Sequence record: ON075799
Strand: one strand, 5' to 3'
DNA length: 64,000 nucleotides
DNA from: Escherichia phage vB_EcoM_TH18
A program made the position numbers and the translations under genes. Shown here one piece after another: positions 38,879-57,493 of the stretch. The notes below the pieces were generated by a model. The model worked only from the letters and a program-made list of their open reading frames with translations, was not told where the DNA came from and made no database searches. Positions within the stretch are counted from its first letter, which is position 1. Each line of letters begins with the position of its first letter.

Positions 38879-38967
38879 TGGAGGAGGCTGACAGAATCGA
38901 ACTGTCACCATATCTCTACAGCGGGACTGGGTTCAAACCAGCTTGTGCACCATGCACCCCAGCCTCC
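38879..38967 (-). tRNA. tRNA-Ser (anticodon UGA), class II
   Basis: Acceptor GGAGGCU/AGCCUCC, anticodon arm GCUGG-UUUGAAC-CCAGU, long variable arm, T-arm GACAG-UUCGAUU-CUGUC. Confidence 0.7.
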
Positions 38968-39038
38968 AAAGATAGCCTCTGCCGAGGATATACACCCAAC
39001 AAAGGAGGCGCTCAGGTCAGAAGAAATCTGAGCCTTAA

Positions 39039-39132
39039 TGGAGGAAGATGCCAGACTTGAACTGGCACACCCATTTCTGGGTTACTATCTCCTTAGCAGG
39101 GAGATCCCTTACCAAATTAGGGTTAATCTTCC
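39039..39132 (-). tRNA. tRNA-Ser (anticodon GCU), class II
   Basis: Acceptor GGAAGAU/AUCUUCC, anticodon arm UCUCC-CUGCUAA-GGAGA, long variable arm, T-arm GCCAG-UUCAAGU-CUGGC. Confidence 0.7.
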
Positions 39133-39153
39133 AATACCTTAGTAATTAAAAAC

Positions 39154-39243
39154 TGGTGGAGAAGGAGAGAATCGAACTCTCAAGCCGTTTTACCAGTCAG
39201 CACATTTCCAATGTGCTTTCGTCGCCAATCGATTTGCTTCTCC
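39154..39243 (-). tRNA. tRNA-Ser (anticodon GGA), class II
   Basis: Acceptor GGAGAAG/CUUCUCC, anticodon arm GCACA-UUGGAAA-UGUGC, T-arm GAGAG-UUCGAUU-CUCUC; D-arm irregular. Confidence 0.65.
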
Positions 39244-39252
39244 GTTTTAACT

Positions 39253-39328
39253 TGGCAGGGGATGGTTGATTCGAACAACCGATCACGGGGTCAAAGCCCG
39301 TTGCATTAGGCCACTATGCTAATCCCCT
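39253..39328 (-). tRNA. tRNA-Gln (anticodon UUG)
   Basis: Acceptor AGGGGAU/AUCCCCU, D-stem GCAU/AUGC, anticodon arm ACGGG-CUUUGAC-CCCGU. Confidence 0.75.
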
Positions 39329-39331
39329 TTT

Positions 39332-39409
39332 GCACGAGAGTGAGGAATAGAACCTCTTAGTCACTGGTTTTGGAGGCCAGCCTTCACCCAGTGAAGTTAC
39401 GCTACTCTC
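39332..39409 (-). tRNA. tRNA-like remnant (probable pseudo-tRNA)
   Basis: Acceptor-like GAGAGU/ACUCUC and T-arm-like GAGG-UUCUAUU-CCUC, but no canonical anticodon arm. Confidence 0.2.
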
Positions 39410-39417
39410 ATTAAAAA

Positions 39418-39975
39418 CTATTTTCGAAAAGGACTTATGAAAAATGCCAACATCACTCTCTCTCTTGAAAAAGCTCTGTCTTCAGGAACCACACTCTTCA
39501 GTTTCCAACCGACATAAATTCGCCAGTAAAATTGTTTTCCAAACAATCTAAAAGACGGGACAAACGCGAATACACCCCACGCATTGTCATTCCACATCAA
39601 CAAATAGCCTTGTTGGTTATCCTCCACATCAGAGCTTACATGGAGGTTTCCTTTCCACTTTGTCACAGATGTGATTTCACGTCCAAGTACGTGATAGGAG
39701 AAATTGTAGGCTTTATTTCTCCACAACCAAGCAACTCGTTGTAGGTAAACACCAAAACTTCCTATTTTACGGACTTCTTCCCATCTCTCTATGTGTCCTC
39801 TATCACCGTCTATAGGATTATCATATGTCTCCATCCACCTGAAAATATAAGGCAGATGCCCTGTCTTCTCATTATAGAACGGAACAACAAAAGGAGCCAG
39901 AATAACACAGAGAACCGACATAACTGGGTCAAGAGGTGCTAACAGGATCCACGATAAATATTTTAAGTATCTCAT
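39418..39975 (-). CDS. Hypothetical membrane-associated protein (185 aa) embedded in tRNA cluster
   Basis: Hydrophobic N-terminal helix; Trp-rich. Confidence 0.35.
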   Translation of the reverse strand: MRYLKYLSWILLAPLDPVMSVLCVILAPFVVPFYNEKTGHLPYIFRWMETYDNPIDGDRGHIERWEEVRKIGSFGVYLQRVAWLWRNKAYNFSYHVLGREITSVTKWKGNLHVSSDVEDNQQGYLLMWNDNAWGVFAFVPSFRLFGKQFYWRIYVGWKLKSVVPEDRAFSRERVMLAFFISPFRK

Positions 39976-40407: not shown

Positions 40408-40483
40408 TGGTGGGAGTGGTAGGCTCTGCCCCTACGTCCTCTCGATTATCGGTCGAGCGATCTACTAACTGATCTACACTCCC
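40408..40483 (-). tRNA. tRNA-shaped gene, anticodon GAU (Ile by anticodon), with non-canonical D-, anticodon- and T-loops
   Basis: All four stems perfectly paired, but T-loop is GGCAGAG (no UUC), D-loop AGUUAGUA lacks GG, anticodon loop CCGAUAA has C33. Confidence 0.55.
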
Positions 40484-50064: not shown

Positions 50065-50895
50065 ATGACAAGTATTTTACACACGACAGGTATTTTACCA
50101 CACTATCAGAAGGAATATTCTTTCCCTGATTTATCTGGGGATATGTTGCAAATATACGACAAAGTGCAAGGCGAAGTGTCGGAGCTACAATTTAGTTCAG
50201 ACCCTGATGATGAGCAAGAGTTTGATAAACAGATTTGTCGTGTAGAAAACGAGCTTATAGAGCTACAATCATTAGCCAAATCAACAGATATCGAAGACTT
50301 AAGGCGACACGTTGAGAATCTTGAAAATTTAGTGTTCGGGCTTTCGCAAGCTATTATAAACATTGGTGAAATTGCTAAAATTGCCTCTGACAAGTTGCCA
50401 GACAACACAGAAGATATTGAAGAAGCGTTGCAGAATATCTGCTATGAAGGAAGTTCTGCTCTCGGTTGTGAATGTAATCTAGGAAATGCTCTTGAAGAGC
50501 GTGGGTGGAACCTGTTCCAAAAAACTTTTGTTTATCGTGTTATTGGTGGTGAGTTTCCTCGGCTCATACAACTTAATGCCCTTTTTGGAAACAGCCAGGG
50601 TGATAATATTGCATTAGGTATTGATGGCTGGTTCTGTTTAAGAGGTAAAGAATTAGCATTTTGTTGTGGCGATGATGTGTTAATTCTCAATGCTTATAAA
50701 CCAGGTGTTGAAATAACAACAAAATTAAATGGTAAGTCCACTAAATTTCACACCAGAGAGTTGGAAGATATTTTCATGGACATATTTGATCCTACAGAAG
50801 ACGAAATTCTTATGTATGAAATGACCAGTGGAAAAAGATATGATATTTTGTCGTGGAGAAATATTTTTGGCAAGAAGAGAAAGCCTGTAGCGTGA
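50065..50895 (+). CDS. Early hypothetical protein (276 aa)
   Basis: Long ORF followed by hairpin ccctgtga…tcacaggg. Confidence 0.5.
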   Translation: MTSILHTTGILPHYQKEYSFPDLSGDMLQIYDKVQGEVSELQFSSDPDDEQEFDKQICRVENELIELQSLAKSTDIEDLRRHVENLENLVFGLSQAIINIGEIAKIASDKLPDNTEDIEEALQNICYEGSSALGCECNLGNALEERGWNLFQKTFVYRVIGGEFPRLIQLNALFGNSQGDNIALGIDGWFCLRGKELAFCCGDDVLILNAYKPGVEITTKLNGKSTKFHTRELEDIFMDIFDPTEDEILMYEMTSGKRYDILSWRNIFGKKRKPVA

Positions 50896-51158
50896 TATTT
50901 TATCACTGATATTTGTTTTCCCTGTGATATTTTTGTCACAGGGAAAGTTTCAATAGTGGATATTTTCTTGATACTTTAAATTCCTACCAGAAATTTAAAT
51001 TCTGTAAATTTAGAAAACTATTACTTATAGGCGTTTCGACACAATTTTGTTATGAAAGCCTTGTTTTTATATAAAAACCTGTTTTAGCATGGGTGGTAGG
51101 ATCACACTCCATACTACCTTTATTCCTACAGATGAGCATCTCCATGTTCGAAAACTCG

Positions 51159-51340
51159 GTTCTCGATCGAAAATTCATTTTCCAGATCGTATTTGCTCCT
51201 TACGGAGAAAATTTTTTAGGGCTACAAGTTTCAGTTCTCGATCGGTTTTTCGATTTCAAAATCGTATTTGTTTTTTCTTGCGAAATTTTTCGCACGCTCA
51301 GTTCTCGATCGAGTTTTCAAAATCGAAATCGTATTTGCTC
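51159..51340. repeat. Three tandem direct repeats (about 67-75 bp), each containing GTTCTCGATCG and AATCGTATTTG
   Basis: Repeat units begin at 51159, 51234 and 51301; each includes a GATC site; no ORF. Confidence 0.8.
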
Positions 51341-51742
51341 TATAGTGCGAAAAAATTTTTATGGGTATCATAATTCTATCACACACTTAAACGCAAAGCA
51401 ACATAAAAATTTTTGTTGAATGATAATCATTCTCATTTGCAGAATGACAGGTAGGATCAGTGTCTTATCCTCCCCCGTTGACCATCGTCGCCGTAGTTTG
51501 AAGTTTATAGCCGTTCTCGGCTTATCTCTTTGTTAGAGATAGATTACCATAATTGATAAAGAAAGCAAGCGTTAATTGTAATCTTTACGTTTCTTTACAA
51601 ATTTATTTTAGACAAACTACCGGCGATCGACCTTCCAACCAGCGCCCTGGTATGTTAGCCCCGCCTTTACGCCGTGGGGATGGCGTTGCCTCTTCTGTAT
51701 GTTAGGCATTATAAGCCCAATCCCTGGGCTTGTCAAACATTT

Positions 51743-52006
51743 TTATTTATTTTCTTGCCAGGTTAGGACACCTAACCAGAAATGGCAATCACCTTTCGCC
51801 CATTGTGGTATATTGCTTTCTTTCCCACCTTCCCGCGCCCAGGAATAACCGCCCGTGTAACTTTGTAATTGATAACTATCCTCGACCTTATAATCTGACA
51901 GGTTGAGAACTGTTTCTACCTTTAAGCCTGTTGCGCTCGCTACCTGGTGGATAGTTCCCCCTTGCCAGCCTAACGCGTGCATAAGGTGCATTGTGGTAGT
52001 GGTCAT
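51743..52006 (-). CDS. Hypothetical small protein (87 aa), lone minus-strand gene in early region
   Basis: ORF divergent from 52186 gene. Confidence 0.4.
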   Translation of the reverse strand: MTTTTMHLMHALGWQGGTIHQVASATGLKVETVLNLSDYKVEDSYQLQSYTGGYSWAREGGKESNIPQWAKGDCHFWLGVLTWQENK

Positions 52007-57223: not shown

Positions 57224-57493
57224 ATGATGAACATTTCTAAAACTACTTTTAACTTTGCTAAAAAGCGCGGTATTGAGCTTGAGCTGATCGAAGCGGATGA
57301 TCGCTTGGTCCTGGCTTTTTATGAGGCTAAAAATGAATGTGAATGGATGTTCTCTTATAATGTTAATCATGATTGCCTAACATGGCGCGGCAATATCTAT
57401 CTTTCAAACGAAGTAAAAGAGGAGTTACCCGCCACGATCACGACTGAGAAAAAACTACGTGAGGTTATTGATTTCATCTCTAAAAATATCTAA
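57224..57493 (+). CDS. Early hypothetical protein (89 aa)
   Basis: SD AAAGGT upstream; promoter-like TTGACA upstream at about 57144. Confidence 0.45.
   Translation: MMNISKTTFNFAKKRGIELELIEADDRLVLAFYEAKNECEWMFSYNVNHDCLTWRGNIYLSNEVKEELPATITTEKKLREVIDFISKNI

Follow-up and report, generated by a model that had tools for sequence, protein, structure and literature searches.

A conserved gene-free island with three phased repeats and a pseudoknotted candidate RNA in Avunavirus and related phages: a possible replication initiation region

Iteron origins are built from tandem direct repeats of 17-22 bp with A/T-rich DNA adjoining; lambda ori, for example, comprises four 19-bp iterons that bind the O protein together with an A/T-rich stretch, and other origins of this class are P1 oriR, R6K, pSC101 and F oriS. 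Other replicons depend on a transcript, as seen for the primary origin of T7, which lies downstream of the phi1.1A/B promoters, for T4 ori(uvsY) and ori(34), where a promoter is combined with a downstream unwinding element and an R-loop, and for ColE1 with its RNA II and RNA I. Tandem sites also form the F centromere sopC (twelve 43-bp units, each with a 7-bp inverted repeat) and the packaging site (pac) of P1 (seven GATC-containing hexamers), a type of site at which methylation governs cleavage and which is situated in or beside the terminase genes. Here, we analyse a stretch of 64,000 nucleotides (nt) of Escherichia phage vB_EcoM_TH18 (record ON075799; hereafter the window), in which an initial annotation had proposed that three tandem GATC-containing repeats represent a replication origin or iteron array or, alternatively, a non-coding RNA locus. 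The repeats (51147-51360) are situated in a gene-free island (50896-51742) that is shared by rV5-, PVP-SE1- and phi92-like phages, which are widely used in phage therapy and biocontrol.

Similarly to iteron origins, the array consists of tandem, helically phased direct repeats next to bent A/T-rich DNA, its specificity seems to co-evolve with the replicon and predicted transcription passes through the region; clustered GATC sites are a further likeness, to P1 and oriC. It differs from them in that the units are 67-75 bp long and contain two cores, only three copies are present, no adjacent initiator was recognised, the island has no DnaA box and the GATC sites of the array are not conserved between lineages. 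With the T7, T4 and ColE1 systems the island shares a consensus early promoter reading into a structured, G+C-rich segment whose RNA would be rich in G, DNA of 70-80% A/T beyond that segment, and convergent promoters that could yield sense and antisense RNAs. However, the island transcript is a discrete predicted pseudoknotted RNA, which occurs alone in Aeromonas phages, and the repeats are situated another 250-550 bp downstream. In having long tandem units, each with a dyad inside, and, in this lineage, a GATC cluster, the array is reminiscent of sopC and P1 pac, but the neighbours examined showed no partition genes, 13 kb separate the array from the terminase gene, and sister lineages have boxes without GATC. 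A literature search, which covered part of the relevant genome papers, returned no description of the island, the repeats, the Fur-like boxes or the RNA. Hence, we consider the locus to be best described as an iteron-like cis-acting array within a composite control island, and we do not file it as a classical iteron origin, since it departs from such origins in unit size, lacks DnaA boxes and has no recognised Rep gene beside it.

The repeat array and its conservation

The units of the array are spaced 75 and 67 bp apart, and each of them contains GTTCTCGATCG (box A), followed after 16 nt by ATCGTATTTG (box B), which confirms the initial annotation of units at 51159, 51234 and 51301. Repeat finding recovered the same single three-copy family (51147-51217, 51222-51292 and 51289-51359; 65-73% identity), in which the conserved cores are the 11 nt of box A and the 10 nt of box B, with the 16 nt between them. 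Unit 1 (51147-51221) consists of box A (51159-51169), a T-tract core, box B (51186-51195) and an A4T6 tract (51208-51217); unit 2 (51222-51288) has its boxes at 51234-51244 and 51261-51270 and an A3T5 tract at 51283-51290; unit 3 (51289-51360) has box A at 51301-51311, where it forms the near-palindrome TCTCGATCGAG, box B at 51328-51337 and an A6T5 tract at 51350-51360. Internal dyads are present as well, namely TCTCGATCGAGA and, in some units, TCTCGAT...ATCGAGA.

The array is unique in the sequence examined. The pattern TTCTCGATC-N15-35-ATCGTATTT has three occurrences in the window versus none in 100 shuffled sequences, GTTCTCGATCG with at most one mismatch is found at these three places only, and no further copy of the array is present in the following 38 kb of the same phage (102 kb covered in all). 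Entries of '2 places' in the search tables are presumably off-register self-matches of the array, and Tandem Repeats Finder does not detect it because the units are too diverged. GATC is clustered here as well: five sites fall in 51095-51307, the densest 213-bp stretch of the 64 kb, while GATC is not depleted genome-wide (253 sites versus 229 expected).

Several observations bear on the level at which the repeats are constrained. The sole recurrent complementarity within a unit pairs CGAT of box A with ATCG of box B, and in many units ATCG is changed to AACG without any compensating change in box A. Two plus-strand frames, of 94 amino acids (aa; 51089-51373) and 108 aa (51093-51419), overlap the array, but unit 3 is in another reading frame than units 1 and 2, and in Mydovirus KB57, with its 74/66 spacing, each unit is in a different frame. 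Because the changes in box B are uncompensated and the units stand in different frames, the constraint appears to act on duplex DNA, and we conclude from this sequence pattern that the repeats function as DNA.

The island is syntenic in Avunavirus, Seunavirus (PVP-SE1, 4MG), Mydovirus (KB57, Mydo), Certrevirus (CR3, phiTE) and Henunavirus (Hena1), in Serratia phage Kashira, in A73-like coliphages and several uncultivated contigs, and also in Stephanstirmvirinae (phi92, tuntematon) and Phapecoctavirus. Across genera the repeat DNA remains ~75% identical, as compared with 18-40% for the protein encoded immediately upstream, and it is thus the non-coding DNA that is under the tighter constraint. 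In the majority of lineages, three boxes occupy equivalent positions, but their sequence varies: TCTCGATCG in Avuna-, Seuna-, Mydo- and Certrevirus and in Kashira, ACTTGAGRGG in Hena1 and A73, TTATTTAAAG in phi92 and Phapecoctavirus, TCTCGATAG in contig L024 and GGTCGTAGGATTTTTT in L036 and L046. The geometry of phased direct repeats is kept in at least nine lineages, with box spacings of 75/67, 76/67, 74/66, 78/63, 76/69, 68/75 or 67/77 and a distance of 141-145 bp from the first to the third box (142-143 bp where just two boxes are recognisable). A GTTTTTC-like T-tract core is common to the lineages, and in most of them an AnTn tract ends each unit. Since three of the box types (TCTCGATCG, ACTTGAGRGG and TTATTTAAAG) are found among phages infecting one host, E. 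coli, a host factor is unlikely to read them; a co-evolving phage protein acting on a fixed scaffold would be the simplest account of constant spacing combined with changing boxes. On the other hand, the GATC sites, initially regarded as a hallmark of origins and partition sites, lose that significance here, given that sister lineages keep the array with boxes devoid of GATC (ACTTGAGRGG, TTATTTAAAG and GGTCGTAGGA; it is missing from the boxes of Hena1, A73 and phi92).

A related layout is present in rV5, where a 2.6-kb gene-free region (104,014-106,617; L015 44014-46617) contains three CCTGAAGAG-GGTTTCAT boxes and, after them, degenerate Fur-like palindromes in which GTTGAATGAGAAT of the island recurs. 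In the rV5-like phage Bas54, an intergenic region of ~2 kb, located between bas54_0134 and bas54_0135, reportedly took no transposon insertion (preprint 10.1101/2025.11.20.689424), and this region is probably the counterpart of the one in rV5.

We also noted that the order of the units is rotated between lineages: in a comparison of 51147-51360 with KB57 (L005 1500-1725) and PVP-SE1 (L004 1490-1715), unit 1 of the window resembles unit 3 of KB57, unit 2 resembles unit 1 of KB57 and PVP-SE1, and unit 3 resembles their unit 2, which suggests unequal crossing-over in an array held at three copies. Two 'complete genome' records open inside the island, that of Enterobacter phage EC152 (PP681140) within repeat unit 1, where it lacks 8 nt (TACTCGAT) that are present in its close relative L025, and that of LTH01 (PP430345) exactly between the TCTTTAC region and the RNA; both ends are probably assembly breaks. 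Moreover, four 146-kb records labelled 'Campylobacter phage' (MG065639, MG065656, MG065645 and MG065689) carry an island with 85-89% identity to the phi92/Phapecoctavirus type of E. coli phages, whose genome size they share, and their host labels look doubtful.

Possible functions of the array

Fixed geometry, changing recognition sequence, bends and uniqueness together form the pattern of a specialised nucleoprotein assembly site. The repeats are most likely phased binding sites for a co-evolving, phage-encoded protein, so that the initial proposal of iterated protein-binding DNA sites is supported by the conserved geometry and by the gene-free, promoter-rich and A/T-tract-rich setting; it is from such sequence features that we infer protein binding, the phage origin of the binder and a function in replication. 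We prefer, as a tentative and unproven reading, that the array marks the region where phage replication is initiated. The repeats would serve at the DNA level as helically phased sites (long iterons) for a sequence-specific phage protein, each unit being composed of a lineage-specific and partly palindromic box A, the GTTTTTC-like T-tract core, box B (A[T/A]CGTATT) and a bend-inducing AnTn tract. The three units, ~75 and 67 bp apart, could be wrapped into a single nucleoprotein complex of ~142 bp, which would be one module of a conserved 0.85-kb cis-acting control island and would mark the initiation region. Two minus-strand promoters and one Fur-box-controlled plus-strand promoter are predicted to transcribe into or across the array, and this transcription may provide transcriptional activation or priming, as at the origins of T7, T4 or lambda.

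The surroundings are origin-like, with four GATATTT and two TCTTTAC motifs, A/T-rich phased tracts, the GATC cluster and promoters firing into the region. The rV5 region has a related layout, and the insertion-free region of Bas54 fits an element that is essential in cis. Several points, however, weigh against an origin. No initiator gene was recognised among the flanking genes, the 276-aa neighbour showing coiled-coil matches but no Rep-like one, and the helix-turn-helix (HTH)-like motif of the 87-aa neighbour is unchanged across box types. No DnaA box (TTATNCACA, at most one mismatch) lies in 50896-51742; in the whole window there are 72 such matches versus 88 expected. The units are three to four times as long as classical iterons, GATC is not conserved across the boxes of the lineages and the units of phiTE are partly degenerate. 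The GC skew, suggested initially as a check, turns at ~47.5 kb, where gene orientation switches, and not at the island; we rejected it as an origin marker, as it tracks gene orientation. Finally, Aeromonas phages retain the RNA but not the array, the covariance model of the RNA scores a non-significant 8.2 bits on rV5, and the Bas54 and rV5 regions are equivalent by presumption only.

If the array is the origin, it would offer a handle for engineering and for replication studies, and, provided that the two regions are equivalent, it would account for the Bas54 region tolerating no insertion. The island is now defined by precise, mutable elements: three phased boxes, GATATTT iterons, a Fur-like operator, two minus-strand promoters and an RNA of ~95 nt. 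A more far-reaching view, which we regard as speculative and improbable, is that the island is an iron-sensing replication and early-control centre of rV5-like and phi92-like phages, in which a ~142-bp three-site origin, Fur-gated convergent promoters and the pseudoknotted RNA would let host iron set the rate of replication starts. If the Fur-like boxes do bind Fur, a virulent phage would be using a metal regulator of its host within a non-coding control region of its own, which, to our knowledge, would be unusual.

Rather than marking an origin, the units might be operator or enhancer sites for a phage regulator of the island promoters (the Fur-box promoter, P2(-) and the RNA promoter), timing the non-coding RNA or an early-to-middle switch with no role in replication. 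We consider this possible but unlikely. The array precedes the plus-strand promoter by 55-270 bp and is located downstream of the minus-strand promoter P2(-), box B contains TAnnnT in many units (TATTTT, TATTCT, TAATCT, TATTAT), each unit is preceded by an UP-like AnTn tract, the island borders the promoter-dense early block (52.1-60.3 kb) and a small HTH-like gene adjoins it. However, 20 nt separate box A from the -10-like part of box B downstream of it, which misfits the spacing of sigma-70 promoters, and the motif, found nowhere else in 102 kb, does not represent a general promoter class; moreover, no gene follows downstream on either strand, and the insertion-free Bas54 region, if homologous, suggests more than fine-tuning. 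A sigma-70 promoter in each unit was rejected, as the hexamers would be 20-25 nt apart and a promoter scan finds none there, and so was a likeness to extracytoplasmic function (ECF), sigma-32 or T4 late-type promoters, whose spacing and motifs do not fit (as judged by eye only).

A pac site, where bent DNA would present multiple phased sites to the small terminase subunit as in SPP1 or P1, seems to us decidedly improbable. Phased sites, intrinsic bends, ~142 bp of wrapped DNA, a lineage-specific recognition sequence, GATC sites clustered in this lineage and the apparent essentiality in cis (Bas54 region) would suit such a site, and the GenBank records of some relatives begin or end inside the island. 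But the gene for the terminase large subunit is 13 kb off and the array is neither in nor beside it, GATC is not conserved in sister lineages, and the two record ends inspected differ (the TCTTTAC/RNA junction in LTH01, unit 1 in EC152) and look like assembly breaks. As these records break at different positions, we do not take GenBank record starts as indicating a physical genome end or pac.

Long tandem units with internal dyad symmetry would also be expected of a centromere-like, sopC-type site set or of a decoy array acting as a sponge for a host or defence DNA-binding protein, and the adjoining Fur-like boxes, with up to five copies in phi92, could titrate a host protein too. With only three copies, no ParA- or ParB-like gene among the neighbours examined and lineage-specific boxes within one host, which argue against a host target, we judge this very unlikely.

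Equally, the repeats could be imagined to work as RNA, as tandem small RNAs or processed repeats resembling a ToxI-like type III antitoxin or a pseudo-ToxI decoy; the relative phiTE does carry such a decoy of tandem repeats (PMC3475682), transcription of the array could start at P2(-) and also arrive by read-through from the RNA promoter, and individual units contain small hairpins. Yet the phiTE escape locus (106,714-106,772) is remote from its island homologue (~38,965-39,840), nothing ToxI-like was seen, the window has no ToxN-like open reading frame (ORF), and ToxI repeats are ~36 nt long versus the 67-75-nt units here, which show no RNA-type covariation. Hairpins within units were rejected as well: the pairing of box A with box B is broken without compensation, the dyads of the 16-nt core vary from unit to unit, and no hairpin is conserved across units or lineages. 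Rfam searches over the repeats (E up to 10) gave only chance-like matches far under the gathering scores (TYMV_upPK, 19 bits versus 38), and in the entire window only tRNAs reach the Rfam threshold. Taken together, these results make an RNA role of the repeats most improbable, and we discarded the pseudo-ToxI model.

That the repeats belong to a real protein-coding gene (the 94-aa or the 108-aa ORF) is hardly credible, although plus-strand frames of 78-124 aa are open over the array in six of the eight lineages examined and some GenBank records annotate genes there (PVP-SE1 gp202, Mydo gp054), given that the frame shifts between units (unit 3 here, all units in KB57), the array of 4MG is spanned by no plus-strand ORF of 50 aa or more and that of Kashira by one of just 64 aa, DNA motifs and not a frame carry the conservation, and two overlapping frames that are both open are typical of composition. 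The initial statement that no convincing ORF surrounds the repeats holds: the two frames are not conserved as reading frames between lineages, and the hypothetical proteins gp202 and gp054, flagged here as probable false gene calls in public records, are probably spurious.

A predicted pseudoknotted RNA beside the array

The most solid new result of our analysis is a by-product, a pseudoknotted early RNA adjacent to the repeats. The suggestion of a non-coding RNA locus thus fails for the repeats themselves but holds for the neighbouring segment 51605-51701, where covariation and a single-copy model match support a minus-strand structured RNA gene of ~95 nt. From 5' to 3', the RNA consists of a short leader, an H-type pseudoknot, the sequence CUAAC, a bulged hairpin that varies in both length and sequence and, finally, a tail that is invariant, AAGGUnrAUCGCCGGUAG. 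Stem 1 of the pseudoknot is CGCC/GGCG, with the variants GGAC/GUCU and GCC/GGC, and stem 2 is CCCC/GGGG, with the variants CCAA/UUGG, CCAG/CUGG, CCAU/AUGG and CUCC/GGGG. In an alignment of 19-23 sequences from about fifteen lineages, nine of the 15 pairs change on both sides, as compared with 3.0 in shuffles (none of 500 reached the observed value), and 90% of the alignment cells can pair, versus 27-46% when the partners are slid. With 100.8 bits, 51605-51693 is the sole match of the covariance model in the window. No Rfam match (E up to 10) overlaps 51605-51701, nor does any overlap the RNA in three other lineages. The RNA occurs in at least three groups of phages and is a candidate for a new RNA family.

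A promoter on the minus strand (51708-51736; TTGACA, 17 nt, TATAAT), with an A-rich upstream element, precedes the RNA; no other promoter in the 64 kb fits the consensus perfectly, and this one is conserved in every lineage. The hairpin noted initially near 51711 is real (51713-51731) but is not a terminator, as it constitutes the spacer of this promoter. On the minus strand, the loops of the pseudoknot (L1 of 1-2 nt, L3 of 6-7 nt) have the right length for a classical pseudoknot. A 30-nt insertion in two Aeromonas-phage sequences falls in L3, and two lineages have GNRA loops (GAAA, GCAA). Although a small number of G-U pairs would argue for the plus strand, the conserved promoter, the classical loops, the GNRA loops and a U-G wobble in 4MG speak for the minus strand, which we regard as the likely rather than the certain strand of the RNA.

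In Aeromonas phages 2L372D, 2L372X, 4L372D and 4L372XY, the RNA lies alone between ORFs with its own promoter and without the repeats. Since these phages have the RNA without the array, the two are separable modules.

Further elements of the island and its genome setting

At the left end of the island, four GATATTT motifs start at 50894, 50908, 50926 and 50959 (50894-50965), the first beginning inside the stop codon of the upstream gene and the third lying in the loop of a hairpin (50920-50943). Two to four GATATTT(G) occur at the same place in most Vequintavirinae lineages and in the Stephanstirmvirinae-like contig L035, independently of the box type of the 70-bp repeats; in Kashira just one copy, a degenerate one, is present, and phi92 lacks the motif. 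The GATATTT motifs look like a second, more widely conserved set of putative binding sites. The hairpin itself, ccctgtga/tcacaggg, was described in the initial annotation and is real (-20.4 kcal/mol, z = -7), but it is not a classical terminator, because the U-run precedes the stem instead of trailing it. The stretch 50960-51080 (68-80% AT) contains phased A/T tracts as well as a 16-bp palindrome, GTTTTTATATAAAAAC (51063-51078), and is a candidate for easily bent or unwound DNA; AT content also reaches ~80% at 51400 and 51580, a generic feature in a genome that is itself 60% AT.

To the right of the array, a plus-strand promoter-like site (51405-51445) is composed of an A5T5 tract (51405-51414), a -35 element TTGAAT (51416-51421), an 18-nt spacer and a -10 element CAGAAT (51440-51445). 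Its spacer is the palindrome AATGATAATCATTCTCATT (51419-51437), which agrees with the 19-bp Fur box at 15 of 19 positions whichever strand is read and shows the 6-bp offset typical of such boxes; the Fur box has the consensus GATAATGATAATCATTATC or can be read as overlapping 7-1-7 repeats. Within the window AATGATAATCATTCTCATT is among the top Fur-box matches, and an unrelated site at 57356 also scores 15/19. Fur-like palindromes with 15-16 of 19 matches, one to five in number, occupy the corresponding position in almost every enterobacterial lineage, including five in phi92 (L010 1290-1420) and three in CR3 (L008 1650-1750); in L036 and L046 the half-sites AATGATA and TATCATT are 8 bp apart rather than 5, and L024 has no Fur-like box. 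As in Fur-controlled promoters, the candidate box fills the promoter spacer and overlaps the -35/-10 region, a likeness based on sequence match only, but the setting here is a non-coding island of a lytic phage. The site may instead be read by a phage protein with Fur-like specificity. Models of Fur binding are discussed elsewhere (PMC2189734), and the promoter-like site is built like the early promoter consensus of the family (AAAA..TGTTGA, N19, -10; PMC7344957).

Further downstream on the plus strand, a terminator-like hairpin (AGCCGTTCTCGGCT, 51509-51531) followed by a T-rich tail was observed in Avunavirus only and could end a transcript of ~75-80 nt from the Fur-box promoter. The minus-strand promoter P2(-) (51541-51568) has a -35 element TTGCTT (51568-51563), a 16-nt spacer and a -10 element TAATCT (51546-51541), and heads leftwards to the Fur-like operator and the repeats, converging with the plus-strand promoter. 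Equivalents in KB57, CR3, PVP-SE1 and phi92 (TTGCAA/TTGATC/TTGCTT, N16-17, TATATT/TATTAT/TATTCT) point to P2(-) as a second conserved sigma-70-like minus-strand promoter. Transcripts are predicted to start near 51701 (-), 51534 (-) and 51452 (+) from the RNA promoter, P2(-) and the plus-strand promoter, respectively. The convergent promoter-like sites (51416-51445 on the plus and 51541-51568 on the minus strand) are ~85 nt apart and would give rise to fully complementary short transcripts over a conserved C-rich segment, which in CR3 and Hena1 can form a long-range stem with a compensatory change (ATAGCGGG/CCCGCTAT versus ATAGCAGG/CCTGC..TAT). Between P2(-) and the RNA, two direct TCTTTAC repeats (51582-51598) are placed 10 bp, i.e., one helical turn, apart; the pair is conserved as two copies of TCTTTACAA in most lineages, and the 2.6-kb non-coding region of rV5 contains about nine (C)TGTTTAC(A/G) iterons (L015 45460-45640).

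The region is 100% identical to Escherichia phage 18-1-2 and 95% to Av-05, both Avunavirus (Vequintavirinae), and neither record annotates a gene in the island. Up to 37.7 kb, the minus strand encodes structural genes, portal and terminase (the large subunit at 34.1-37.7 kb); a cluster of at least 17 tRNA genes (37.8-43.5 kb) and genes of nicotinamide adenine dinucleotide (NAD) salvage (to 47.4 kb) follow, and small plus-strand genes fill the region from 47.7 to ~62 kb. One minus-strand tRNA (40411-40483; Rfam, 53 bits) is not in the ARAGORN list, and several ARAGORN tRNAs are not in the Rfam table. Strong sigma-70-type plus-strand promoters are concentrated at 52.1-60.3 kb, and the island lies at the left border of this promoter-dense early block.

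The island is flanked by a plus-strand ORF of 276 aa (50065-50895; phrog_12959, function unknown) and a minus-strand ORF of 87 aa (51743-52006; phrog_19316). The 276-aa gene is syntenic upstream of the island in most Vequintavirinae, and its product evolves fast (18-40% identity across genera). It matched no Rep family in Pfam or PHROGs and no solved relative, giving coiled-coil matches only; as a putative initiator it found no support in these searches, the word index giving close relatives only and the Pfam and PDB profiles coiled-coil noise. The 87-aa gene, the sole leftward gene of its block, encodes an HTH-like motif (LGWQGGTIHQVASATGLKVETVLNL), and this motif (LGWQGGTVHQVAxATGLxVxTVLxL) is near-identical in phi92, tuntematon, Kashira, A73 and phiTE; because it is the same in lineages with different boxes, the protein cannot set box specificity. 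In Seuna- and Mydovirus an unrelated 60-aa ORF takes its place. A search for host homologues in 5,426 E. coli genomes gave no match to the island.

The 10-mer GGTAGGATCA occurs at 51095-51104 and 51450-51459, on either side of the array and the Fur-like box, and its second copy is not retained in Av-05. Moreover, HNH endonuclease genes or other insertions lie beside or inside the island in PVP-SE1 (gp204; L004 650-1237), Hena1 (L011 296-862) and the upstream part of L024, and the island border appears to be a hot spot for mobile endonuclease genes.

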